A stretch of 64,000 bases of DNA from an uncultured Bifidobacterium sp. (GTDB lineage: Bacteria > Verrucomicrobiota > Verrucomicrobiia > Limisphaerales > JADJPG01), in NCBI GenBank assembly GCA_964491875.1, contig CAZBIC010000004.1:52669-116668 (forward strand), written 5' to 3'. The position numbers were made by a program, and so were the translations under genes. This document shows, piece by piece, positions 7,315 through 47,553 of this stretch (the stretch's first letter is position 1; the number at the start of each line of letters is the position of its first letter). A model generated the notes under the pieces. The model did no database searches, had not been told where the DNA came from, and saw only the letters and a list, made by a program, of their open reading frames with translations.

Positions 7315-7338
7315 CCGGACCTTTTCGGAAACATCTCC

Positions 7339-7890
7339 ATGATCAAACCGTGGCCCCAGACAAACTCGACCGCTCTCGGTGATTACCGGATCTTCAAGGT
7401 TCGTTCCGATGAAAAGGTTTCGCCGCGCACGGGGAAGAAGCATGATTTCTATGTCATCGAGTGCGTGGATTGGGTGAACGTGATTGCGATTACGCCGGAT
7501 GAGAAGTTGGTGATGGTGGAGCAATACCGACACGGCTCGAACACGGTGGAGCTGGAGATTCCTGGCGGCATCATGGATTCCTCGGATGCGTCGCCCGTGG
7601 CGACCGGTGTGCGCGAGTTGCGGGAGGAGACGGGATTCGAGGGCGAAGGCGCGCGACTGCTTGCGAGTGTCTTTGCCAATCCGGCGATCATGAACAACTC
7701 CTGCCATACGGTGATGATTCCGAATTGTTCATTGAAGCATCCTGTCGAGTGGGACAGCGGCGAAGACATGGTGACGCGCTTGGTGCCGATCGCGGAAATT
7801 CCTGGTCTGGTCGCTTCCGGCAAGATCCGGCATCCGCTGGTGGTGGTGGCCTTGTATTACTTCGAATTGGACCAGCGCAAGCAGTGCTGA
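7339..7890 (+). CDS. NUDIX hydrolase (ADP-ribose pyrophosphatase-like)
   Basis: Nudix box GGIMDSSDASPVATGVRELREETGF (GX5EX7REUXEEXGU). Confidence 0.85.
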   Translation: MIKPWPQTNSTALGDYRIFKVRSDEKVSPRTGKKHDFYVIECVDWVNVIAITPDEKLVMVEQYRHGSNTVELEIPGGIMDSSDASPVATGVRELREETGFEGEGARLLASVFANPAIMNNSCHTVMIPNCSLKHPVEWDSGEDMVTRLVPIAEIPGLVASGKIRHPLVVVALYYFELDQRKQC

Positions 7891-8003
7891 GGCGGTTTTG
7901 GTAGTGCCGGGGAGGACGATTCTTCTTTCACGAGGGGGTGGATTCTGCGTTTATCTCACGCGCCGTTTCCCGATTCCCGGGGACGCTGTTTACAAAACTG
8001 ATT

Positions 8004-9215
8004 ATGAACACGATCTCGACTGTCTTACTGAAACCCGGCGAAGCCGACCGCGTCCTCGCCGGTCACCCCTGGATTTACCACGGTTCGCTTCTCCGACTGA
8101 CCCAACCTGCTGTGGACGGCGATCTCGTTCAGGTCAAGGATCACCGTCAGCGGTTGCTCGGAGTCGGGTTCTACAATTCCAAGTCGAAGATCAATGTCCG
8201 GATGATTGCGCCGGATCGTGTCGAGGTGGATCGCTCGTTCTTCATCGAGCGCATTCGTGCGGCGTTGGATCTGCGGCAACGGTACATGCCGGGAGCGAGT
8301 TCGTTTCGGGTGGTGAATTCGGAGAGCGATCAACTCAGCGGATTGATCGTCGACAAGTACGAGGATGTTCTCGTGGTGCAAACGTCGGCGCTCGGCATGG
8401 ATCGTCGCAAGGCGGACATCATTGTCGCACTGCGCGAGATCTTTTCTCCCCGCGCCATCGTGGAGCGCAACGAAGTGGCGTCGCGGAAATTTGAGGGACT
8501 GCCGGATGCGAGCGGCGTGGTTTTTGGGGACGCTCCGGGCAGCATTCAGGTGAAGCTGAACGGTTTGTCATTCGAGACGGATTTGATCGCGGGTCACAAG
8601 ACAGGACTTTATCTCGATCAGCAGACGAACTACCGGCTGGTGTCCGAGTTCGTTCCCAAGCTGAAGAATGCGCAAGTGCTGGATTGCTTCAGCTTCCTGG
8701 GAGGCTTCGGTCTTCACGCGGCCAAGGCGGGCGCGGCCAATGTTCATCTTCTTGATCAAAGCGCGGATGCCATTGAGGCCGGAAAGCGTAATGCAAAGGC
8801 GAATGGCGTGGAGGCGAAGTGTTCCTTTGAGAACGTGAACGTCTTTGACTGGCTGAAGGCTCAGACGACGGCGAAACCGAATGAGAAGGTACTGCCGCGG
8901 TTTGATTTGCTCGTGCTCGACCCACCGTCGTTCACCCGCAATCGCGCCGCCGTGCCCGATGCGTTGCGTGGCTACAAGGAAATCCACATTCGCGCCCTGA
9001 AGCTCTTGAAGCCGGGCGGGGTGCTGGCGACGTTCTGCTGCTCACATCACGTCACGACGGAGCTGTTCCAAGATGTCATTCTTGCGGCGGCCTACGATGC
9101 GCGAAAGCTATTGCGGCGCGTGGCGACGTACGGCCAGTCGCCGGATCATCCGGTGATTCCGGCGATTCCGGAGACGGAGTACTTGAAGGGCTTTGCTTTC
9201 GAGATCGTTCGCTAG
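8004..9215 (+). CDS. rlmI: 23S rRNA (cytosine-C5) methyltransferase RlmI-like, PUA + class I SAM MTase
   Basis: ORF 7938..9215 trimmed to ATG 8004 (MNTISTVLLKPGEADRVLAGHPWIY). SAM motif VLDCFSFLGGFGLHAA. DLLVLDPPSF catalytic-region motif. Confidence 0.8.
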   Translation: MNTISTVLLKPGEADRVLAGHPWIYHGSLLRLTQPAVDGDLVQVKDHRQRLLGVGFYNSKSKINVRMIAPDRVEVDRSFFIERIRAALDLRQRYMPGASSFRVVNSESDQLSGLIVDKYEDVLVVQTSALGMDRRKADIIVALREIFSPRAIVERNEVASRKFEGLPDASGVVFGDAPGSIQVKLNGLSFETDLIAGHKTGLYLDQQTNYRLVSEFVPKLKNAQVLDCFSFLGGFGLHAAKAGAANVHLLDQSADAIEAGKRNAKANGVEAKCSFENVNVFDWLKAQTTAKPNEKVLPRFDLLVLDPPSFTRNRAAVPDALRGYKEIHIRALKLLKPGGVLATFCCSHHVTTELFQDVILAAAYDARKLLRRVATYGQSPDHPVIPAIPETEYLKGFAFEIVR

Positions 9216-38716: not shown

Positions 38717-40266
38717 TGCCGGAAGTGCCTCAAGCCGGTGAACACCATCGCGATGTCGTGCTCGTTCGCGGCCGCGATTACTTCCTCGTCCCGCATCGAA
38801 CCACCCGGTTGAATCGCCGCCGTCGCACCTGCCTTCGCCGCCGCTACCAATCCGTCTGCGAACGGGAAAAACGCATCGCTGCACACCACGCTTCCATTGA
38901 GCGACAATCCGGCTTCACCCGCCTTCCACACTGCGATGCGGCTCGAATCCACGCGACTCATCTGACCGGCCCCGATGCCCAGCGTGCGACCTGCGCCCGC
39001 GTAGACAATCGCGTTCGACTTCACGTGCTTCACCACGCGCCAGCCAAAGAGCATCGTGTCCATCTCGGCGGCAGTCGGTTGGCGTTTCGTCACCACCTTT
39101 ACATCTGCGGCGGTCACACGACGCACGTCGCGTTCCTGGGCGAGGAAAGAGTCCGCGCCGACACTGCGCACATCGAGGGAGCCTGGCGTCACCGGATTCT
39201 TCAGCACCTTCAGCAGGCGCAGATTCTTCTTCTTCTGCAACAGCGCTGCCGCTTCCGGGGTGAAATCCGGCGCGATGATTACTTCGCTGAAGATCTCCGC
39301 GATGGCCTCCGCGCAAGCGAGGTCAAGCGGTTGGTTCACCGCGATGATTCCGCCGAACGGCGCCTGCTTGTCCGTCGCGTATGCGTTGTCCCACGCCTCA
39401 CGCAGGTTGCCGCCCTGGCCGACCCCGCACGGATTTGTGTGCTTGAGAATGGCCAGCGTTGGGCGTTCGCCGTCGAACTCCGCGATCAAATTCGCCGCCG
39501 CCGTGAGATCAAGAATGTTGTTGTACGAAAGCTCCTTGCCGTGGAGCTGCTTGAAGTAATCAGCGAATCCGCCGTAGAGCGCGGCCTTTTGGTGCGGATT
39601 CTCGCCGTAACGCAACGGTTGCGCGAGCTTGGTCTGGATGCTGAGCGCGGGCGGGAGCGAGGACGCACCTTCAACCGCGAACACCTTCGCCAGGTGCGAG
39701 GCAATCGCCGCGTCGTAGGCAGACGTACGGGCGTAAACCTTCGCGGCGAGCTTGCGTCGCAGTTCCAGCGTCGTGTCTCCATTGGACTGAACCAGCGCGG
39801 CCACTTCGGCGTAGTCCGCCGGATCGACGATCACCGTAACGCTGTCGTGATTCTTCGCCGCGCTGCGCAGCATGGAAGGCCCGCCGATGTCGATGTTCTC
39901 GATCGCGTCGTGCAGCGTGACATTCGGCTTGGCGATGGTCTGTTCGAACGGATAGAGGTTCACCACCACGAGATCGATCGGCGGAATGCCGTGCTTGGCC
40001 ACCGCGGCTTCATGCTCGGCGTTGCCGCGGATGTGCAGCAAGCCGCCGTGAACCTTCGGATGCAGCGTCTTCACGCGGCCGTCGAGCATCTCGGGAAAGC
40101 CGGTGTAGTCGCCCAACTCAATGACCTTGAGGCCGGCCTCGCGCAGGGCCTTGGCCGTGCCGCCGGTGGAGATGAGCTCCACGCCCGCCTGGGCGAGCGT
40201 TTGGGCGAAGGGTACCAGGCCCGACTTGTCGAAAACGGAGAGCAGCGCGCGTTGAATCTTTGCCAT
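38713..40266 (-). CDS. purH: Bifunctional AICAR transformylase / IMP cyclohydrolase PurH
   Basis: ORF trimmed to ATG 40266 ([18 protein letters not shown]). [16 protein letters not shown] and C-terminal GLRHFRH. Confidence 0.95.
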
Positions 40267-40381
40267 AAAAGAGACGGAGAAAATCTCCACCACACGCCGC
40301 CGCGTCAATGGAAGAATCTGCGGAACGGGGGTAGGAGACTGAGCGTGATGAAGTAAAAGCGGCAATTGAAGAACGCCCGTC

Positions 40382-40418
40382 CTCACCCCATCCCTCACCA
40401 TGAGAGGGCCGGGGTGAG
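40382..40418. repeat. Degenerate member of the CTCACCCC/GGGGTGAG hairpin repeat family
   Basis: CTCACCCCatCCCTCaccatgaGAGGGccGGGGTGAG, nested inverted repeats, lying between the DUF1501 stop and the purH start. Confidence 0.5.
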
Positions 40419-40431
40419 AGCGGACCAATCC

Positions 40432-41892
40432 TCAAGTCACCACAGCCTTCACCACGTTGCCGTGGATGTCCGTCAGGCGATAACGCCGGCCCTGGTGCTT
40501 GAAGGTCAGTTTCTCGTGATCAATGCCAAGCTGGTGCAACACCGTCGCCTGGAAGTCGTGGACATGGACCGGGTCGATGACCGCGTTGTAGGAGAAATCA
40601 TCCGTCTCGCCGTAGCTCATGCCCGGCTTGAAGCCGCCGCCTGCCATCCAAATCGTGAAACAACGCGGATGATGATCGCGCCCGTAATCGTCCTTCGTCA
40701 GCTTTCCTTGCGAATACGCCGTGCGCCCGAACTCGCCGCCCCACACCACAATCGTGTCATCGAGCAGCCCGCGTGACTTCAAGTCCGTCACCAGCGCCGC
40801 GCACGCCTGATCCGTCTTCGCGCACTCGTTGCGAATGCTGCGCGGCAATCCACCGTGATGATCCCAGCCTTGGTGGTAGAGCTGGATGAACCGCACATCG
40901 CGCTCAGCCATGCGCCGTGCGAGCAGACAATTCGCGGCGAACGTGCCGGGCTTCTTCGCGTCGTCGCCGTAGAGCGCGAACGTCGCGTCGGATTCCTTCG
41001 AGACATCCATCACGTCCGGCACGGAGGTCTGCATCCGATAAGCCATCTCATACTGCGCCACGCGCGAGTTGATGTCCGGATCGCCGAGGTCGTTGTATTG
41101 CACCTCGTGCAGCTCCGCGAGCCGGTCGAGCAGCTTGCGCCGGCTCTCCGCCGTCACGCCGGCAGGGTTGTTCAGGTAGAGCACCGGGTCCTTGCCCGAG
41201 CGGAACTGCACGCCCTGATGCAGCGACGACAGAAAGCCATTTCCCCACAAGCGCGAGTAGAGCGGCTGGTCGCGATTCGCGTTCTTGGAAATCAGCACCA
41301 CGAAAGCGGGCAGATTGTCATTCGCGCTGCCGAGACCGTAGCTGAGCCACGCGCCCATCGAGGGACGCCCCGCAATTTGCGAGCCGGTCTGGAAGAACGT
41401 GATGGCCGGGTCGTGATTGATGGCCTCGGTGTGCAGCGATTTGATGAAGCACAGGTCATCGACGATCTTTGCCGTGTGCGGGAGCAGTTCGCTCACCCAC
41501 GCGCCGCTCTTGCCGTGCTGCTGGAACTTGAACGCCGAACCCGCCAGCGGCAGCGACGACTGGTTGCCCGACATGCCGGTGAGCCGCTGTCCCATGCGCA
41601 CCGACGCCGGCAGCTCCTGGCCGTTCAACTCGTTCAGCTTCGGCTTGTAGTCGAAGAGATCCATTTGCGACGGCCCGCCGCTCATAAAGAGATAGATCAC
41701 GCGCTTGGCCTTCGGCGCGAAGTTCGGGAAGCCCGGCAGCCCCTGATACGGATTCGCGCTCGCGACCGCCGTGCGCGCCGCCTGAGCAGCGGGGTTGAAT
41801 AATCCCGCCAGCGCCACGCCGCCCAGCCCGAGGGCGAAGCGCCCGAAGAAGTCGCGCCGGTTCATGCCGAAATTGAGGTGGTTGCAGTTCAT
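40432..41892 (-). CDS. DUF1501 domain protein (sulfatase-like, Tat-exported)
   Basis: Tat motif [18 protein letters not shown]. Length and overall sequence character match the DUF1501 family that partners DUF1549/DUF1553 proteins. ATG 41892 is 2 codons inside the TTG-started ORF. Confidence 0.85.
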
Positions 41893-41953
41893 AGACAATA
41901 CTTCGTGAAAGTGATCTGGCTGTGTGATGGAGAATGCATAGAGTGCGGAAGTC

Positions 41954-42598
41954 TCAATCCCATGGGACTTCTGGTTTCAGTGCATATCGCGTAAATCTCC
42001 CGAAGTTGTTGAAAGAAACAATCTCTCTCGAATACTTCATCATTCTGCAAAGCTCAAAGACTGGGCGGATGTAGTCACCTTTTATGCCGGTCCCAATCAG
42101 AACGGCCTTAATCTCGGCTTTGATGAATTTGAATTTTTCGTCATGGCCAAAAACTAATCGATACTCCTCCTCGTGTTTCCAATGATGCGACTTAAAACGT
42201 AGTCGATCCTTCGTTCCGGCTTTCTCAAGCGGAGACATGTCTTCAAGGTATTCCACTTTAATTAAATCGTGCTCAAATGGTGTCATGTCTAACTCCAAGC
42301 AAATGCCGGAATGTCCATTTCCATAATATGACCACATCAGAATCGATTCCGGATTTGCCGAGAAGCAACAGACCCGAAAACGATCTACTTCATCTAGCGA
42401 TGCTAGAGCAAATTTGACTGATTCGTCGAATTTGGACGAGGCGTTCGTGGTGTCTTTCGAGCTTGGTTGCGATACTCCGAATAAGCCCTCCAATGGATCA
42501 TTCAGCTCAGATGCATTCGGGCAATACAGTCGCTTGGTAAGGAGAGTGTCTGCGACGTGGACGAACGGCTCTAGGTTTTTGAACTTGTAGAGAATCAC
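41954..42598 (-). CDS. DUF2971 family protein (function unknown), low-GC gene
   Basis: GTG start. [10 protein letters not shown]...[15 protein letters not shown] and [26 protein letters not shown] match the DUF2971 signature pattern. Markedly AT-richer than its neighbours. Confidence 0.7.
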
Positions 42599-42849
42599 TT
42601 GAAGAAGGGTATTGGTCGTTCGCCGAGGTCTGAAATGCCGTCACATAACAGCACGGGACGTGGCACCAGGTAATTGATTCCCGAAACAGATCCAGCCCTG
42701 AAGGGGCGGAACAAACTTGAATCGTCCGTCGTGTCGCCCTGACAGGGCTCACGACTCTCCGCGACCCCGAACTCAGGGCGTTGCCCTGGGCTGTCATCTC
42801 GCGCCCCTTCGGGGCTGGGGAAATGCTCATCGCGGAGCGATGGGGTGAG

Positions 42850-42912
42850 GGTAGCCGTGGGCTTCAGCCCACGGTAAGGCGCCGAACCACACCCGCGTCG
42901 CGTAGCGACGCC
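42850..42912 (-). repeat. ~62-nt double-hairpin element, copy A (inverted relative to copy B)
   Basis: The reverse complement GGCGTCGCtacGCGACGC-N20-CCGTGGGCtgaaGCCCACGGCTACC aligns with copy B. Confidence 0.7.
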
Positions 42913-42940
42913 TGACCTTCCACCACGACCCACATTCATC

Positions 42941-43002
42941 CGTCGCTCCGCGACGCCACCGAGCCGCACGTCCTCCACCGTGGGTTCAAACCCACGGCTA
43001 CC
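42941..43002 (+). repeat. ~62-nt double-hairpin element, copy B
   Basis: CGTCGCtccGCGACGC-N21-CCGTGGGTtcaaACCCACGGCTACC. Confidence 0.7.
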
Positions 43003-43181
43003 GTCGGTGCCTCGCTCCGCGAGGCGGGCGGAAATAGTTGAACAGCACTTCATCGTATGGTCGGAAGTTCAGACGGTGAACCTGCTCTGTTCATTGCAGA
43101 AATATCCGGACTCCGCCGTTCGCAATCAAGCCCACCGTTCCTGGTCTCTGCGTTTCGGTGGCGGGTTGGCGTGTCGTCGTT

Positions 43182-43223
43182 CTCACCCCTCACCCCGGCC
43201 CTCTCCCCGTTGAGGGGAGAGGG
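43182..43223 (+). repeat. 42-nt repeat, copy a
   Basis: CTCACCCCTCACCCCGGCCCTCTCCCCGTTGAGGGGAGAGGG. Contains an internal 10-bp stem CCCTCTCCCC/GGGGAGAGGG with loop GTTGA. Confidence 0.9.
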
Positions 43224-43374
43224 GGCGTGGAGGGCGTCTTTTGTTGGTTCATCGTTCAGTGCCGCGCTCGTTGCATTTTTGCTTCGCTGTGAATTTCGTA
43301 TCGGTGTGCAAAACCCGAAGCGCCACGAACGCGGCGACGTATGTTCGATCCTCAACGCGGTCCCATCGCGAACT

Positions 43375-43416
43375 CCCTCTCCCCTCAACGGGGAGAGGGC
43401 CGGGGTGAGGGGTGAG
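43375..43416 (-). repeat. 42-nt repeat, copy b (exact, inverted)
   Basis: Exact reverse complement of copies a and c. It is 151 nt from copy a and 24 nt downstream of the DUF559 stop codon. Confidence 0.9.
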
Positions 43417-43440
43417 GCGGTTCGTGTGATCCCCATCTGC

Positions 43441-43938
43441 TCAACGCACCTTCGGCGGCATCCGATTCGGTCGCAGCGGCACCTTCGCATCCGGCGGAGG
43501 CAGCGGCCAGGTGCGCGACCGTGCTTCCGGCGTTACCGGCACGTTCTCCGGATGCGGCGCGCGTTCCTGCAACAGCAGCCACAAATTCTCTTTCACCATT
43601 TCCGGTTGCTGGCGCACCTGCGAGTTCCAGAACCGTTTCGTCACGATGCCGCGTGAGAGCAGATACGCTTCCTTGGCTTCATCCCGCTGCTGCTGGTCGG
43701 GGAATCCATGTTGTCCACCGTCCAATTCGAGCGAGAGCTTTGCCTCCGCGCAATAGAAGTCCAACGTGTAACGGCCGAGCGGATGTTCGCGACGGAACTT
43801 GTAGCCCGCGAACCGACGGTCGCGCAGCAACCGCCACATCCTCCGCTGCGGCTCGGGCATCTTTTGACGCAGAGCGCGGGCGCGGTTGGTGGGATTCCTT
43901 CGAGGAGCGGAAGGTTCTGGTAGTTTCTCACCCCTCAC
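43441..43938 (-). CDS. DUF559 (Vsr-like endonuclease fold) domain protein
   Basis: NRARALRQKMPEPQRRMWRLLRDRRFAGYKFRREHPLGRYTLDFYCAEAKLSLELDGGQH is the DUF559 signature. The maximal ORF (to 44028) runs through repeat copy c, so the start is uncertain (GTG 43938 inside the repeat, or ATG 43860). Pro-rich C-terminal extension. Confidence 0.7.
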   Translation of the reverse strand: MRGEKLPEPSAPRRNPTNRARALRQKMPEPQRRMWRLLRDRRFAGYKFRREHPLGRYTLDFYCAEAKLSLELDGGQHGFPDQQQRDEAKEAYLLSRGIVTKRFWNSQVRQQPEMVKENLWLLLQERAPHPENVPVTPEARSRTWPLPPPDAKVPLRPNRMPPKVR

Positions 43939-43968
43939 CCCGGCCCTCTCCCCGTTGAGGGGAGAGGG
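43927..43968 (+). repeat. 42-nt repeat, copy c (exact)
   Basis: Identical to copy a over 43 nt (TCTCACCCC...GAGAGGG). Overlaps the 5' end of the DUF559 ORF. Confidence 0.9.
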
Positions 43969-44024
43969 AGCGCGAACGACGGCTTCGGTCGAGGCATGGC
44001 CTTCACCGCGTTTGGAGTGTTCGC

Positions 44025-47000
44025 TCACCGCTTCAAAATCGCCTCGTCAAAGTTCATCACCGCGCTGGCCACCGCAGCAGCGGCGGCGAGTTCGGCGCGA
44101 TCGAGTTTCGGGTCGATGGCTGATTCGCCAATCTTCAGCGAAGCCTCGGCATTGGCCTTGTCCGCACGGAAGAGGGCGAGTTGATCGTCGCGCAGCTTTT
44201 GCAGGATGCGGAGCTCGCGCGTCGTCGGCTTGCGTCCGGTCAGGAGGCGAAATGTTTCCGTCACCTGTTCCCGCGGCTCACCCGGATTTGACTTCAGCAC
44301 CTGCTCGCCGATGCGGCGGGCGGCTTCGAGCATCTGCGGGTCATTCAGCAGCACGAGCGCCTGGAGCGGCGTGCTCGTGGGCTGACGCCGGACGACGCAC
44401 GTGTTCCGCTCGGATGCGTCGAAGGTCGTCATCATCGGGTGCGGTGCGGTGCGTTTCCAGAACGTGTAGAGGCTGCGGCGATAGAGTCCTTCTCCTTTGT
44501 CCGGCGTGTAGCTGGAGCCAGCGGTGTCTTCCCAAATGCCCTCGGGTTGATACGGCTTCACGCTCGGGCCGCCGAGCTTTTGGACGAGCAACCCGGACGC
44601 CGCGAGCGCTTGATCGCGCAACATTTCAGAGGTGAGACGCGTCTTCGGTCCGCGGGCGAGGAGCTTGTTGTCGGGATCGCGCGCGAGCAGTTCCGGGCTA
44701 GCCTCCGACGATTGCCGGTAGGTAGCGGACGTTACGATGAGTTTGCAGAGCGCCTTGAGGTCCCAACCGATTTCCATGAAATGCATCGCAAGCCAGTCGA
44801 GCAATTCAGGATGCGTAGGCAGCGCGCCCTGACTGCCGAAATCTTCCGCGGTGAGCAAGAGGCCGTGGCCGAAGAAGTTCTGCCAGTAACGGTTCACGAG
44901 CACGCGCGCGGTGAGAGGGTTCTGGCGGTCGACGAACCATTGTGCGAGGCCAAGGCGATTGCGCGGGAGCTTCGGATTCATCGGCAGGATGTTCGCCGGC
45001 GTGTCCGGCTCGACGGTCTCGGCGCGCTTGTCGTATTCGCCGCGCTTGAGGACGTAGGTCGGACGCGGCGTCGGCAAATCGCCCATGCCCATGATTTCAG
45101 GGATGCGGTTGATGAAGTTATTCTCGTCGTCGCGGAGTTTCTTCAGTTCGGCGAGCTGCTTCGCGAAACCTTCGTCGGCGGTGGCGAGATAGTAATCCAA
45201 CGCCGCAGCGCGCTCGGCGAACTGCAGGCTACCATTCACCGTTGGAAAGGCGCCCCCTAGTTCGTGCATCTCCACCGCACTCAGCCGGCGGTTGAAGACC
45301 TTCAGCTCGTCGATCATGCCGTCCTTGAATCCGCGGCTGCGGAAGCGCGCGGCGAGCGCGAGCGGCTGGCCGTTCGCGAATTCCTTGGTGAGCTTGTCTT
45401 TCTCCACCTCCGTGGCGGCGGTTTGACCATTGACGAAGAGCTTCAGACCCGCGGCGCGGCTGGAGCCGTCGTAGGTGACGCCGACATGGGTCCACGCGTT
45501 GAGCGGGAGTTTGTCCTTGGTGCGGACCTTGATGGCGTTGCCGGGCCAGAAATGAATCAGACCGAAGCTGGCGTGGCCGTCTTCGAGCACGAGTTGATAG
45601 CCTTGGTAGCCGGAGTCAGAACCGGCTTGCTGATGGTGCAGCACGACAATCTCGGGCAGTTCCTCGGAGGGGTTGATGTAGAGGCTGAATGAGAACGGAT
45701 CGGTGCGTTTGAAGTCCGCGAACTTGTCGATGCGCACAGAGTTTTCGCCATCAAACTGGAGCGCCTGACCGAATCGACCTGTCACGCTCTTCGGGCCTTC
45801 GGAGAGCTTCGCGTGGAAGTTCGTCGCGGCCAGATTGCGCGATGTGGTGTTCGTGACATTGTCGAATGAGTAGTGGCCGATCAACCCTCTCTCAGTCCCG
45901 AAGGAAGGAAATCTTTGTCGAGAGGAGGCGTCCTTCGGCTCCGGGGATTCCCCTCTCCTCACTCCTGCGTCATGGGGCGAGGGAATGGTCGCACGCGCTG
46001 AGGCGTTCGACGCTTTGGCTTCAGCCAGCCACTTATCAAACGCCGGCTTGGCAGAATCTCGATACGTCTCCAGTTCCTTTTCCTTCGAGGCGACCGCTTG
46101 CTTGAGCGCGCGGTGTTTCTGCTCTTCGCCGTCCTTGTAGAGCAGCGTGGTCGGCGTCGGGATGGCGTCGGTGAAGTGCGAGTAGAGGCCGGATTCGTCG
46201 GTCGAGTTGAAGAACGCGAAGAGGCGGTAGTAATCTTTCTGCGAGATGGGATCGTATTTGTGGTCGTGACAACGCGCACACTCCATCGTGAGCCCGAGGA
46301 ACGCGCCCCCGAGCGTGTGGACGCGGTCAGCGTTGTATTCGACTCGGAACTCTTCGTTCACACTGCCGCCCTCGTTGGTCTGGCGATGCAGGCGGTTGAA
46401 CGCTGTCGCGACTTTCTGATCCTGCGTGGCGTCCGGCAGGAGGTCGCCGGCGAGTTGTTCGATGATGAACTGGTTGATGCGGATGTTGCGATTGAACGAT
46501 TTGATGACCCAGTCGCGCCACGGCCAGAGGTGATTGATGCGGTCGGCCTGATATCCGTAGGTGTCCGCGTAGCGCGCGACATCGAGCCACTCAACGGCCA
46601 TGCGCTCGCCGTAGGCCGGCGACGCGAGCAATCGGTCCACGACCTTCTCGTAGGCGGTCGATGATTTGTCGGTGAGGAAGGCATCCACCTCGGCGGGCGT
46701 CGGCGGCAGGCCGGTGAGATCGAGGCTCACGCGGCGGAGGAGACGTTCCTTCGTGGCTTCCGGGGCAGGCTTGAGCTTCTCGGCTTCGAGCTTTGCGAGG
46801 ACGAAGCGGTCGATATCGTTGCGCGCCCACTTGCGGTTCTTCGTTTCGGGCACGGCGACATTGCCGACGGGGATGAATGCCCAGTGCTTCTTCCATTCCG
46901 CGCCTTGCTCGATCCATTTCTTGAGCAGCGCGATTTCGTCCGTGCTTAGCGCGAGATTCGCTTTTGGCGGGGGCATGACTTCGTCGGGATCGGTGCTGGT

Positions 47001-47312
47001 GAGGCGATGCAGCAGTTCGCTCTTTGCCGGGTCGCCGGGCTTGATGATGAACTTCCCGTCCTCCAGCGCCTTAAAGGCGCCTTCCGGAGTGTCGAGGCGG
47101 AGCTTGCCTTTGCGCGCCTTCTCGTCGGGGCCGTGACAGAAAAAGCAGCGGTCCGAGAGCAGCGGCTTGATGTGGTAGTTGAAATCGACGCGAGCCGGAA
47201 GCGGCGCGGCAAAAGAGGGCAGTGCCGCCAACATGGCGGCTCCCAACGTGACAAGGAAGCGGATTGGTCGGGAACCGGCGTTCTCAGTGGTACCGGGGCT
47301 GTTCATGGTCAT
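44025..47312 (-). CDS. PSCyt1 / DUF1549 / LamG-like / DUF1553 protein (planctomycete-type cytochrome c domain protein)
   Basis: Signal peptide, then heme motif CFFCHGPDEKARKGKLRLD. DUF1549-like region (RRVSLDLTGLPPTPAEVDAF), CARCHDHKYDPI, and DUF1553-like C-terminus. Start is ATG 47312 or 47306; the track ORF extends to 47384. Confidence 0.9.
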   Translation of the reverse strand: MTMNSPGTTENAGSRPIRFLVTLGAAMLAALPSFAAPLPARVDFNYHIKPLLSDRCFFCHGPDEKARKGKLRLDTPEGAFKALEDGKFIIKPGDPAKSELLHRLTSTDPDEVMPPPKANLALSTDEIALLKKWIEQGAEWKKHWAFIPVGNVAVPETKNRKWARNDIDRFVLAKLEAEKLKPAPEATKERLLRRVSLDLTGLPPTPAEVDAFLTDKSSTAYEKVVDRLLASPAYGERMAVEWLDVARYADTYGYQADRINHLWPWRDWVIKSFNRNIRINQFIIEQLAGDLLPDATQDQKVATAFNRLHRQTNEGGSVNEEFRVEYNADRVHTLGGAFLGLTMECARCHDHKYDPISQKDYYRLFAFFNSTDESGLYSHFTDAIPTPTTLLYKDGEEQKHRALKQAVASKEKELETYRDSAKPAFDKWLAEAKASNASARATIPSPHDAGVRRGESPEPKDASSRQRFPSFGTERGLIGHYSFDNVTNTTSRNLAATNFHAKLSEGPKSVTGRFGQALQFDGENSVRIDKFADFKRTDPFSFSLYINPSEELPEIVVLHHQQAGSDSGYQGYQLVLEDGHASFGLIHFWPGNAIKVRTKDKLPLNAWTHVGVTYDGSSRAAGLKLFVNGQTAATEVEKDKLTKEFANGQPLALAARFRSRGFKDGMIDELKVFNRRLSAVEMHELGGAFPTVNGSLQFAERAAALDYYLATADEGFAKQLAELKKLRDDENNFINRIPEIMGMGDLPTPRPTYVLKRGEYDKRAETVEPDTPANILPMNPKLPRNRLGLAQWFVDRQNPLTARVLVNRYWQNFFGHGLLLTAEDFGSQGALPTHPELLDWLAMHFMEIGWDLKALCKLIVTSATYRQSSEASPELLARDPDNKLLARGPKTRLTSEMLRDQALAASGLLVQKLGGPSVKPYQPEGIWEDTAGSSYTPDKGEGLYRRSLYTFWKRTAPHPMMTTFDASERNTCVVRRQPTSTPLQALVLLNDPQMLEAARRIGEQVLKSNPGEPREQVTETFRLLTGRKPTTRELRILQKLRDDQLALFRADKANAEASLKIGESAIDPKLDRAELAAAAAVASAVMNFDEAILKR

Positions 47313-47553
47313 TGCGGATATAGCTTTGATGGGACCGGAAGCTGCGTATTCGGAATATTCCTGGAGCGTATTCATCAATCCCACAACGAGAAAGATGCTA
47401 ATGGAAAATTCAGGTCCTCCGATTCAAGCGGTGTAGCGGTCGCGTATCAAGGCGCGAAAGCTCGGTTGCCGGGTCAACTTAGGTGGGCCAGGGGCGAACC
47501 GGTTGTCATTCGAAACGATCTCTTGTCAGCCAGGGGCTGGCAGGTGTGGGCAA

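Follow-up and report, generated by a model that had tools for sequence, protein, structure and literature searches.

Known repeat and nuclease systems

The BoxC motif, also named PIT (potential intrastrand triplex) or TM/TMECO motif, has been catalogued in E. coli and other bacteria since 1992 (Bergler 1992; Hoyne & Maher 2000, 2002; Holder et al. 2015, PMC4666352), and was first reported in the envM (= fabI) paper. Its consensus is CCCTCNCCC-loop (N3-6)-GGGNGAGGG-N3-GGGNGAGGG, that is, a hairpin followed by a mirror-repeat tail. Copies are dispersed across many phyla, are mostly intergenic, are often paired in inverted orientation and are associated with locally variable DNA, marking unstable genome sites in E. 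coli. Triplex formation in vitro was shown for the E. coli sequence by Holder 2015, which also cites in vitro work showing that triplexes block polymerases, and earlier work (Hoyne and Maher 2002 for the latter point) that found no in vivo footprint of the triplex and no promoter or terminator activity. No function, origin or mobilising protein is known for the motif, and transposases or integrases were "never found" near it in that survey. In REP/REPIN-RAYT systems (Bertels & Rainey 2011, PMC3116915; PMC3337134), short palindromic repeats in tens to hundreds of copies are associated with a usually single-copy gene encoding an IS200/IS605-type HUH (Y1) tyrosine transposase. DUF559 (PF04480), which includes E. 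coli YcjD, is a very common small nuclease-fold family with no assigned function; N. gonorrhoeae NGO0050 (PDB 3HRL), the only close solved structure, is a structural-genomics entry, likewise with no assigned function. I-Bth0305I (Taylor et al. 2011, PMC3239194; PDB 3R3P) is a Vsr-like ("EDxHD") homing endonuclease.

Repeats and DUF559 gene in the window

The window (the whole 64-kb stretch of DNA analysed) was examined because an initial annotation had noted three exact copies of a 42-nt repeat, two of them bracketing a DUF559 ORF. This observation was correct. The 42-mer CTCACCCCTCACCCCGGCCCTCTCCCCGTTGAGGGGAGAGGG is present exactly at 43182-43223 (+; copy a), 43375-43416 (-; copy b) and 43927-43968 (+; copy c), with no further match at up to 3 mismatches in the window and 0 matches in 100 dinucleotide-preserving shuffles (0 expected by chance). 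Copies a and b are exact inverted repeats 151 nt apart, giving a 235-bp unit, and copies b and c are exact inverted repeats (44 nt if 2 more bases are counted) with 510 nt between the arms, giving 594 bp. The features are as follows.

43927..43968 (-): TM/BoxC copy c. On the gene (minus) strand it reads hairpin then tail (CCCTCTCCCC-TCAAC-GGGGAGAGGG-CCG-GGGTGAGGG-GTGAG), with the tail pointing into the DUF559 gene. It contains a GTG (43936-43938) in frame with the ORF, preceded by the Shine-Dalgarno-like GGAGAGGG.
43441..44028 (-): DUF559 (YcjD-like, predicted Vsr-fold) nuclease ORF at its longest extent (195 aa). The Pfam domain covers residues 47-151, about 43576-43890. The start GTG at 44026-44028 overlaps the stop of the upstream PSD1 gene (GTGA). 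The canonical clade start codon is AGG here (43897-43899).
43375..43416 (+): TM/BoxC copy b. On the gene strand it reads tail then hairpin, 24 nt after the stop codon (43441-43443). It is the inverted partner of c, bracketing the gene, and of a, forming a doublet.
43224..43374 (no strand): 151-nt spacer of the a/b doublet.
43182..43223 (-): TM/BoxC copy a, the outer member of the downstream doublet, in the same orientation as c on the gene strand.
40381..40419 (no strand): degenerate relative, a palindrome made of the tail part only (CTCACCCCATCCCTC ... GAGGGCCGGGGTGAG), 13 nt downstream of the stop codon of the DUF1501 gene.

The 10-bp stem with loop GTTGA folds at -12.4 kcal/mol as DNA (z = -2.7), and the degenerate element, which is real, folds at -15.1 kcal/mol (z = -3.7). 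An Rfam search at E up to 1 over 40000-45000, and at gathering thresholds over the whole window, returned no family for the 42-mer, only the unrelated Acido-Lenti-1 nearby. No intrinsic terminator or sigma-70 promoter pattern was found in 42600-44200.

Identity and distribution of the repeat

Comparison with the published consensus showed that the 42-mer is a type-B (CCG second loop) copy of the BoxC/PIT/TM motif and thus not a private element of this locus. The copy reads CCCTCTCCC-CTCAACG-GGGAGAGGG-CCG-GGGTGAGGG. With strict 9-nt stems the first loop is 7 nt, one over the published range, but the extra C and G pair, which gives a 10-bp stem and a 5-nt loop. An exact 31-base core (CCCTCTCCCC-N3-9-GGGGAGAGGGCCGGGGTGAGG) is present in at least 120 genome stretches from Verrucomicrobiota, Planctomycetota, Acidobacteriota, Alpha- and Gammaproteobacteria, Myxococcota, Dehalococcoidia and others, and in 21 viral-contig stretches, with more than 30 different loop sequences and no conserved flanks; the motif mostly occurs singly.

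Among 330 distinct motifs, changes are matched between the hairpin arm and the tail. At position 1, C-G.G occurs 260 times and x-A.A 51 times, and triad compatibility is 0.943 against 0.896 in 500 shuffles (maximum 0.902), which is only indirect support for an intrastrand purine-motif triplex. Across all loci, adjacent motifs almost always alternate in orientation, with 187 inverted against 17 direct neighbouring pairs.

The reading of exact identity as a sign of recent copying does not hold, since the identical 42-mer also occurs in other organisms' DNA: in the Verrucomicrobiia and Limisphaerales MAG loci L054, L074 and L085, and in DUF559 loci L147 and L203, whose proteins are only 77% and 50% identical. 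The identity reflects lineage-wide constraint or homogenisation, not only recent copying.

Association of the repeat with DUF559 genes

To determine whether the repeat marks DUF559 genes, loci selected by the motif were inspected, and it does not: a DUF559 gene lies nearby in only 1 of 21 viral stretches (L011) and about 1 of 120 genome stretches (L124; another, L051, has one 2.7 kb away), so that about 99% of sampled copies are not next to DUF559. The reverse association is very strong. In 80 metagenomic loci chosen with a core-only protein alignment, a "+" motif lies within 150 nt upstream of the core in 51 of 75 (68%), and an inverted "-" motif within 170 nt downstream in 56 of 73 (77%). 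In far flanks of more than 1 kb from the same loci, 13 motifs were found in 306.7 kb, so about 0.3% is expected per window (binomial p about 1e-109 and 1e-121), although the 80 loci are not phylogenetically independent and these p-values overstate the support. The upstream motif lies mostly 54-75 nt before the conserved core, and the downstream one clusters at 19, about 76 or about 90 nt after it. Motif variants are clade-specific, and the two flanking copies of a gene carry the same variant. The initial annotation had set genome-wide scatter without positional bias toward DUF559 as grounds for refutation; this is half fulfilled, as the repeat is scattered but the positional bias at DUF559 genes is extreme.

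The relative L001 (93%-identical protein, same genomic position) has a doublet-gene-doublet arrangement, and L004 (52% identical, unrelated gene neighbourhood) has the same layout with different loop sequences. In E. coli K-12, which has 23 BoxC sites, ycjD has a decayed motif across its stop codon and a type-A BoxC 167 nt downstream, before fabI. Motif-like units also lie next to DUF559 in Neisseria (N. gonorrhoeae, L228), Azospirillum, Sinorhizobium, Deinococcus, Photobacterium and Sphingomonas, while three of 11 named organisms show no motif. Of 24 more distant DUF559 loci (mostly 37-45% identity) in viral contigs, only two show the full bracketing layout. The association is therefore clade-restricted, and universality across PF04480 was rejected. 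In the literature examined, no paper linking the repeat to this nuclease was found.

The predicted nuclease

The ORF matches PF04480 at 103.4 bits against a gathering cutoff of 20.6 (E = 8e-30). All family-invariant residues are present (D60, E71, D73), as is the nearly invariant H77. The AF2 model has pLDDT 81.5, and a Foldseek search gave 3HRL (DUF559) as the top hit (E = 9e-8, TM 0.88 on the target), followed by the I-Bth0305I catalytic domain 3R3P (E = 4e-4, probability 1.0, TM 0.78 on the target). Similarity to the Vsr fold is only moderate (1VSR, E = 0.065, TM 0.41-0.49). A profile comparison by hhalign against E. coli Vsr was too weak to call orthology (E = 0.15, probability 0.4), and the neighbouring genes scanned are PSD1/PSCyt, DUF2971 and DUF1501, with no Dcm-type methyltransferase or repair operon context. 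The protein is not an equivalog of E. coli YcjD (NCBIfam PRK09767, 87.6 bits against a curated cutoff of 218). In the defence-system libraries only a weak partial DpdF match was obtained (E = 4.5e-7 over 53 residues), judged to be a shared nuclease core.

The canonical ATG is lost in the window: alignment column M14 is M in at least 90% of homologues and R in the window, so this copy may be decaying. In L001 the motif is out of frame and 52 nt upstream of a normal ATG. In a clade of 212-aa homologues, gene callers read through the motif in the same frame ("GERAGVRG"). Gene callers translate the motif into spurious N-terminal extensions ("SPLNGERAGVRGE", "LSPSEGERAGVRG") and call ORFs on the wrong strand over real DUF559 genes.

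Variation at and around the cassette

In L001 the gene sits at the same position, right after the PSD1 gene, so it has not moved recently, and the cassette is not demonstrably mobile now. The a-b spacer is orthologous to the downstream doublet spacer of L001 but inverted relative to the gene, and L001 has a motif in frame inside PSD1 where the window has none. The close relative L242 (DUF1501 95% identical, same synteny) has no DUF559 and no motif between PSD1 and DUF1501, and the cassette is also absent at the adjacent PSD1-DUF1501 pair in L240; the junctions are not clean insertions, because other DNA differs too. Spacers of 42 hairpin-facing doublets are unrelated across loci, and only doublets within the same locus match; upstream and downstream doublets of one locus are direct duplicates (L178 76%, L183 69%).

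In E. coli, ycjD alternates with the eef operon (eefRABCD) at one site (PMC12817139), and 3343 of 5426 genomes carry ycjD. Published motif counts are 13-30 in the Table S7 strains that we assigned to phylogroups A/B1/C, against 1-2 in B2, while the Eef paper reports ycjD in A, B1 and C and the eef operon in the lineages that lack it. This correlation follows phylogroup and may be plain shared ancestry, and phylogroup E strains (the eef operon is shown in ST11) still have 10-11 motifs. In ST131, which carries eef in place of ycjD, the fabI-side and sapF-side junctions show no clear BoxC and no duplication, only the shared sapF terminator hairpin, which does not define a target.

Interpretation

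The interpretation in the initial annotation, a minimal selfish cassette of homing-endonuclease-like or IS-like type with a/b as its non-autonomous derivative, was partly supported. The bracketing is not a local accident but a stereotyped architecture found widely at YcjD-like DUF559 genes, the predicted fold is close to a homing endonuclease catalytic domain, and the a/b pair does look like a gene-less derivative unit. Nothing IS- or MITE-like was found beyond the inverted repeats.

The 42-mer is a lineage-specific (Verrucomicrobiota) variant of BoxC/PIT/TM, consisting of a 10-bp G/C hairpin, a 3-nt linker (CCG, type B) and a mirror-repeat tail that could act as the third strand of an intrastrand triplex, and its three copies belong to a conserved module in which a small YcjD-like DUF559 gene sits between two inverted motifs with both tails facing the gene; outer partner motifs usually turn each side into a doublet. 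In the most likely model (probability about 0.55), the encoded nuclease would recognise the structured motif (hairpin, cruciform or triplex) and nick or cut at or near it, and recombinational repair or gene conversion between motif-bearing sites would then homogenise and spread motif units and doublets. The same activity would make motif neighbourhoods rearrangement-prone, and the gene would persist because it is embedded in its own recognition sites. This would be a REP/REPIN-RAYT-like partnership built on a different enzyme. The analysis itself demonstrates the identity of the motif, the module architecture with its statistical excess, the matching variants on the two sides of a gene, the presence or absence of the cassette among relatives, the inversion of the a-b spacer and an intact nuclease fold as predicted by the model. 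Binding or cutting of the motif by a DUF559 protein and a role of this in dispersal are inferences without experimental support. That most motif copies lie away from DUF559 is expected under this model, but equally under models in which the gene merely sits in motif-rich DNA.

Among the alternatives, the possible though unlikely view that DUF559 is a free-standing homing-type gene inserting at, or retained between, recombination-prone motif arrays spread by another process, without any role in making or maintaining the thousands of solo motifs, ranks next. It fits the I-Bth0305I-like predicted fold, the presence or absence of the cassette at fixed chromosomal sites, the duplicated doublets of L178 and L183, as expected after integration at, or duplication of, a resident doublet, the unusual variability of motif sites shown by Holder 2015, and the motifs that bracket unrelated small genes (L117) or sit in frame inside large genes (L092, L001). 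However, the matching of motif variants on both sides of each gene and their change with the DUF559 clade fit recognition by the encoded protein (though also a shared genome background), E. coli motif counts are lowest in B2, which per the Eef paper carries eef in place of ycjD, and no alternative dispersal enzyme is known. Somewhat less likely, the gene-proximal motifs would only control DUF559 expression, the 5' hairpin sequestering GGAGAGGG and supplying a GTG start and the 3' hairpin protecting the mRNA end, with the nuclease having an unrelated job and motif copies elsewhere doing similar things for other genes. The fixed motif positions, the ribosome-binding-site-like H2 (GGGGAGAGGG) followed by an in-frame GTG, the read-through in the 212-aa clade and the mRNA-stabilising role of REP elements agree with this, and a regulatory or structural RNA at the 5' end, which the initial annotation had offered as its alternative, is not excluded for these copies. 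It cannot explain the thousands of copies elsewhere, nor the outer partner copies, the alternating arrays, the matched changes in the non-pairing tail, or why this gene family in particular is bracketed across phyla; the arrangement in L001, the negative promoter and terminator scan and the published lack of such activity also speak against it.

A domesticated Vsr-like nicking enzyme that resolves hairpins or triplexes of TM motifs during replication, its gene flanked by motifs for autoregulation or by chance of origin, is improbable. It is favoured by the Vsr-like predicted fold, the reported polymerase block, the single-copy and syntenic gene, and the argument that RAYTs have likewise been domesticated (PMC5581495), but the gene is dispensable, being lost or replaced in close relatives and in 38% of E. 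coli genomes, its canonical start is mutated in the window, and no repair context was seen among the genes scanned. A classical IS (b..c) with its MITE (a..b) is already largely refuted. Exact inverted repeats do end both units, but the bases flanking a/b (..GTCGTT / GCGGTT..) and b/c are not duplicated, the only ORF is a nuclease of about 110-150 aa without a transposase or integrase domain, there is no conserved MITE body, the "terminal repeat" is itself a pan-bacterial motif, and the unit is at the same site in L001.

The repeat itself was already described, whereas its coupling to DUF559 makes the nuclease the first candidate partner protein for it. More broadly, and only tentatively, YcjD-clade DUF559 nucleases would be the long-missing partner enzyme of BoxC/PIT/TM repeats throughout bacteria, spreading, homogenising and destabilising the motif through nicking and recombinational repair. 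This would explain a repeat family without an assigned function or mobility enzyme since 1992 and give a widespread DUF family its function. The two are physically coupled from Verrucomicrobiota to E. coli, Neisseria and Deinococcus, which makes both questions testable. If the nuclease acts on the motif, this would be a second, independent example, with different chemistry, of the REP-RAYT type of long-lived, vertically inherited intragenomic replicator, and a natural protein that reads a non-B DNA structure.

Comparison with described systems

Relative to BoxC/PIT/TMECO, the window copies have the same architecture and almost the same bases, but carry a 10-bp stem, a fixed TCAAC loop and a 5-nt tail extension (GTGAG) typical of Verrucomicrobiota copies; the published work did not note that TMECO no. 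9 lies beside ycjD as part of a general pattern. Relative to E. coli YcjD and 3HRL, the window protein shares the Pfam family (3HRL matches the family profile at E = 2.5e-28) and the conserved D...E-x-D-G-x-x-H core, which aligns to the Vsr active-site region, but it is about 44% identical to YcjD over the core, has a proline-rich C-terminal tail of about 40 aa and is not a Vsr orthologue. I-Bth0305I shows that this small nuclease fold can serve a selfish, site-specific DNA-cutting role; its sequence identity is only 16%, it sits in a phage group I intron and it has an extra DNA-binding domain, while the DUF559 gene here is free-standing, bracketed by repeats and without a defined target site. 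With REP/REPIN-RAYT systems the module shares short palindromic repeats, functional units that are inverted doublets, clusters of alternating orientation, a gene itself flanked by the repeats, repeat variants that track the gene clade, and a gene that is vertically inherited rather than freely hopping. It would work like this family but is not a member of it, since the associated protein is a predicted Vsr/PD-(D/E)XK-fold nuclease whose link to the repeat is inferred, with homing-endonuclease-like rather than transposase chemistry in the proposed model, and the repeat carries a mirror-repeat (triplex-capable) tail and has no GTAG/CGTC head at either end.

Verification of the repeats and the enclosed gene

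The initial annotation described three exact copies of a 42-nt repeat, one pair forming an inverted-repeat unit and another pair bracketing a DUF559 ORF, and this description was found to be accurate. The features concerned are as follows.

43182-43223 (+), copy a
43224-43374, spacer of 151 nt between copies a and b
43375-43416 (-), copy b
43927-43968 (+), copy c
43441..44028 (minus strand), ORF between b and c, encoding a DUF559 protein
40381-40419, degenerate relative of the repeat

No other match to the 42-mer with up to 3 mismatches was present in the window, and none occurred in 100 shuffles. Copies a and b are perfect inverted repeats 151 nt apart, and copies b and c are perfect inverted repeats with 510 nt between the arms. 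The protein encoded by the enclosed ORF matched PF04480 (E = 8e-30, residues 47-151), its stop codon lies 24 nt from b, and one GTG inside c (43936-43938) is in frame. The hairpin part folds at -12.4 kcal/mol as DNA. The degenerate relative, which lies just after the DUF1501 gene, is a palindrome of the tail sequence only.

A second, unrelated palindromic repeat family fills the same intergenic region (42692-43022). Acido-Lenti-1 (RF01687) matched at 42772-42816 (+, 38.7 bits, above the gathering score) and at 42829-42874 (-, 25.3 bits), and inverted repeats were also found at 42830-42875 / 42977-43022 (46 nt, 80%) and at 42692-42708 / 42802-42818. A similar element occupies the PSD1 3' flank in L242, a syntenic relative.

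Identity and distribution of the repeat

The repeat consists of a hairpin H (CCCTCTCCCC / GGGGAGAGGG) and a tail T (CCG-GGGTGAGGG-GTGAG). On the gene strand the order is c (H-T), the gene, b (T'-H), the 151-nt spacer and a (H-T). To display its distribution, one genome per species was scanned for CCCTCTCCCC-N3-9-GGGGAGAGGGCCGGGGTGAGG, and at least 120 stretches were obtained, from Verrucomicrobiota, Planctomycetota, Acidobacteriota, Alpha- and Gammaproteobacteria (Rhizobium, Methylocystis, Rhodanobacter, Enterobacter, Klebsiella, Cedecea), Myxococcota, Dehalococcoidia and others, with a further 21 stretches in viral contigs. Loops differ and flanks are unrelated.

The element is the BoxC / PIT / "TM" motif described by Holder et al. 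2015 (PMC4666352), with the consensus CCCTCNCCC-N3-6-GGGNGAGGG-N3-GGGNGAGGG, in which types A and B have TTA or CCG as the second loop. The window copies are type B. According to that study there are 23 copies in E. coli K-12 and 3610 in 262 proteobacterial genomes, the motif forms a triplex in vitro, the DNA around it is variable, it has no known function, and transposases or integrases were never found nearby. In 330 distinct motifs gathered here, the purine arm and the tail change together at mirrored positions, G.G becoming A.A in 51 cases at position 1, and triad compatibility was 0.943 against at most 0.902 in 500 shuffles, which fits a constraint on the mirror repeat.

The exact 42-mer also occurs in the DNA of other organisms, at six further loci (L054, L074, L085, L123, L147 and L203), indicating that exact identity within the window, which the initial annotation took to argue for recent copying or strong constraint, is lineage-wide constraint or homogenisation and not simply recent copying. 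Homologues of the neighbouring DUF1501 protein are named Verrucomicrobiae or Verrucomicrobiota MAGs, so the window is most likely from Verrucomicrobiota.

Association between the motif and DUF559 genes

Starting from the repeat, there was almost no association, since only 1 of 21 viral stretches and 1 of the 120 genome stretches selected by the motif have a DUF559 gene beside it. Starting from the gene, the association was overwhelming. In the close relative L001, whose protein is 93% identical and which has the same position after the PSD1 gene, the arrangement is T'H-142 nt-HT, then 52 nt, then ATG-DUF559, then 30 nt, then T'H-about 135 nt-HT. In L004, the locus of a distant homologue (52% identical) in a different neighbourhood (BatA/VWA ... 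solute-binding protein), the arrangement is HT-gene-T'H-spacer-HT with different loop sequences. A second DUF559 gene of L004 (7486-7959, minus strand) lies on the strand opposite a called 266-aa "gene" (7333-8133) that has no Pfam hit, so that call is probably wrong, and further motifs lie inside other called genes of this locus (5894, 6210, 14094, 14195).

To obtain an unbiased sample, a core-only protein alignment containing no repeat-encoded residues was built and used to fetch 80 metagenome loci, with the peptides [GA]YKFRR[QE]H and LDF[YF]C[AP]EA as search patterns. With a motif detector of 27 specified bases and up to 3 mismatches, a "+" motif was found within 150 nt upstream of the conserved core in 51 of 75 loci, a "-" motif within 170 nt downstream in 56 of 73 loci, and both in 34 of 68. 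The flanks of the same contigs more than 1 kb away hold 13 motifs in 306.7 kb, which predicts about 0.3% per window (binomial p about 1e-109 and 1e-121). The loci are not phylogenetically independent, so the p-values are only a guide, but the effect size does not depend on them.

Upstream motifs lie mostly 54-75 nt before the core, while downstream motifs cluster at 19, about 76 and about 90 nt after it. Motif variants are clade-specific and the copies on the two sides of a gene share the variant, for example CCTTCTCCCC / GGGGAGAAGG / GGATGAGGG, and GGGGAGAGGA-TTG-AGGTGAGGG paired with CCCTCACCT-TAA-TCCTCTCCC. In some clades the inverted repeat extends about 20 nt further toward the gene. Neighbouring motifs alternate in orientation in 187 of 204 cases, as REPs do in BIMEs.

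Occurrence in named organisms

The E. coli K-12 gene ycjD (b1289) is a DUF559 gene between sapF and fabI. In its fabI-ycjD intergenic region (L146 5200-5420), the ycjD stop codon lies in the loop of a decayed motif hairpin (T'H), and about 50 nt of the 3' end of ycjD is duplicated downstream of the gene, followed by a decayed motif remnant and then an intact type-A BoxC before fabI. TMECO no. 9 of Holder et al. is listed between fabI and ycjD, and BoxC was first reported in the envM (= fabI) sequencing paper of Bergler 1992.

Further named cases were obtained by a tblastn search of the plasmid collection, in which some records labelled as plasmids are chromosome-sized. Motif-like units lie next to DUF559 in Neisseria gonorrhoeae (a "+" motif 96 nt upstream and an alternating array downstream), Azospirillum, Sinorhizobium, Deinococcus proteolyticus, Photobacterium (an array downstream) and Sphingomonas, where the gene sits between sufB and sufC, whereas none was detected in Novosphingobium, Pseudanabaena or Picosynechococcus. 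Long arrays of motif variants in alternating orientation lie next to DUF559 genes at L228 1987-2687 (N. gonorrhoeae), L234 1864-3295 (Photobacterium) and a further locus, L185 1-780, with periods of about 281, 148 and 227 nt, respectively. Among 24 more distant DUF559 genes (mostly 37-45% identity) in viral contigs, only the two closest (L243 and L248) show the full bracketing layout, indicating that the association belongs to the YcjD-like clade and not to all of PF04480.

Variation among related loci

The interval between the PSD1 and DUF1501 genes (window 40432-47384) is hypervariable among close relatives, holding DUF559 and DUF2971 in the window, DUF559, PDZ and a 196-aa ORF in L001, and a 512-aa ORF in L242. 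L242, whose DUF1501 protein is 95% identical and which has the same synteny (DUF748-PSD1 ... DUF1501-purH-FHA), has no DUF559 and no motif between PSD1 and DUF1501, and in another relative (L240) the two genes are directly adjacent. The DUF2971 gene next to the repeat zone (41954-42598, minus strand) is of lower G+C appearance and absent from the syntenic relatives, and is possibly another recent arrival in this interval.

The a-b spacer (43224-43374) is orthologous to the downstream doublet spacer of L001 (6914-7047), matching it at 80% over 65 nt on the same database strand although the genes are on opposite strands. It has therefore been inverted relative to the gene, as expected from recombination between exact inverted repeats. 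Upstream and downstream doublets of one locus can also be direct duplicates, as at L178 and L183.

A polymorphic motif was also observed inside coding DNA, where L001 (4824-4859) and L242 (3693-3741) carry a TM motif in frame inside the PSD1/PSCyt gene (peptide PSPLNGERAGVRGE), while the window's orthologue has unrelated sequence of similar length (about 45203-45246). At another locus, L092 (2428-2909), two TM doublets lie in frame inside a 916-aa ORF with an NADH-dehydrogenase-like (NuoE/NuoF-type) appearance, which is reminiscent of Rickettsia palindromic elements that insert into genes.

In E. coli, ycjD alternates with the eefRABCD operon at the same site (PMC12817139), and 3343 of 5426 complete genomes carry ycjD. 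Motif counts per strain are given in Table S7 of Holder et al. With the strains provisionally assigned to phylogroups, these are 13-30 in A/B1/C strains, 1-2 in B2, 6-7 in F and 10-11 in E. The Eef paper reports ycjD in A, B1 and C. This fits dependence on ycjD but follows phylogeny, so it is only suggestive. Inspection of the ST131 junctions gave no clean target site.

Features of the DUF559 protein

Close homologues start with MNPxxRARxLRQ, but in the window this ATG is AGG (43897-43899), as it also is in the 97%-identical homologue P0001. The window copy must therefore use the in-frame GTG inside c, the GTG at 44026-44028, which begins the longest ORF and overlaps the stop of the upstream PSD1 gene as GTGA (44025-44028), or the ATG at M27, or else it is decaying. 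The overlap suggests translational coupling or a decaying gene.

All family-invariant residues are present. The only close solved structure is 3HRL, an "endonuclease-like protein" from N. gonorrhoeae (E = 2.5e-28). An AlphaFold model (pLDDT 81.5) matched, in order, 3HRL, the catalytic domain of the homing endonuclease I-Bth0305I (probability 1.0, TM 0.78 on the target), RAP-domain mitoribosomal proteins, PvuRts1I/AbaSI and Vsr. The profile comparison with E. coli Vsr was weak but aligned the LDF aspartate with the Vsr D51 region, which is consistent with the older report that a YcjD profile detects Vsr (PMC1189080). The protein is not an equivalog of YcjD by NCBI's cutoff.

Interpretation and comparison with known systems

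The analysis establishes that the motif is BoxC/TM and that YcjD-like DUF559 genes are embedded, with fixed geometry, between inverted motifs across several phyla. The most economical explanation is that the protein recognises the motif, in a partnership like REP/REPIN-RAYT, in which the chemistry would be nuclease and repair (homing-like) rather than transposase chemistry, and solo motifs and doublets such as a/b would be the non-autonomous products. That the protein binds or cuts the motif is inferred from sequence and arrangement alone. The partnership is given a probability of about 0.55 overall, while the stronger claim that DUF559 drives motif dispersal is more tentative and is judged somewhat less likely than not.

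Other explanations remain possible, namely that the motifs are cis-regulatory hairpins only, that DUF559 is a homing gene that merely lands in motif arrays, or that it is a host repair nuclease. The initial annotation had proposed a minimal selfish cassette, either homing-endonuclease-like or IS-like, with a/b as its MITE-like non-autonomous derivative, and this interpretation was only partly supported. A classical IS or MITE is essentially excluded, since there is no target-site duplication, no transposase and no conserved internal body, and the "terminal repeat" is a pan-bacterial motif.

The repeat itself is already known. In the literature that could be searched, no paper that mentions DUF559 or ycjD, and none combining intrastrand triplex with endonuclease, links the two, and the main BoxC study reports finding no associated mobility protein. 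What appears to be new is the association of this repeat with a candidate partner gene, which is directly testable in E. coli K-12. The arrangement is rated as a proposed repeat and partner-gene system of the REP-RAYT type, from which it differs in having a different enzyme.
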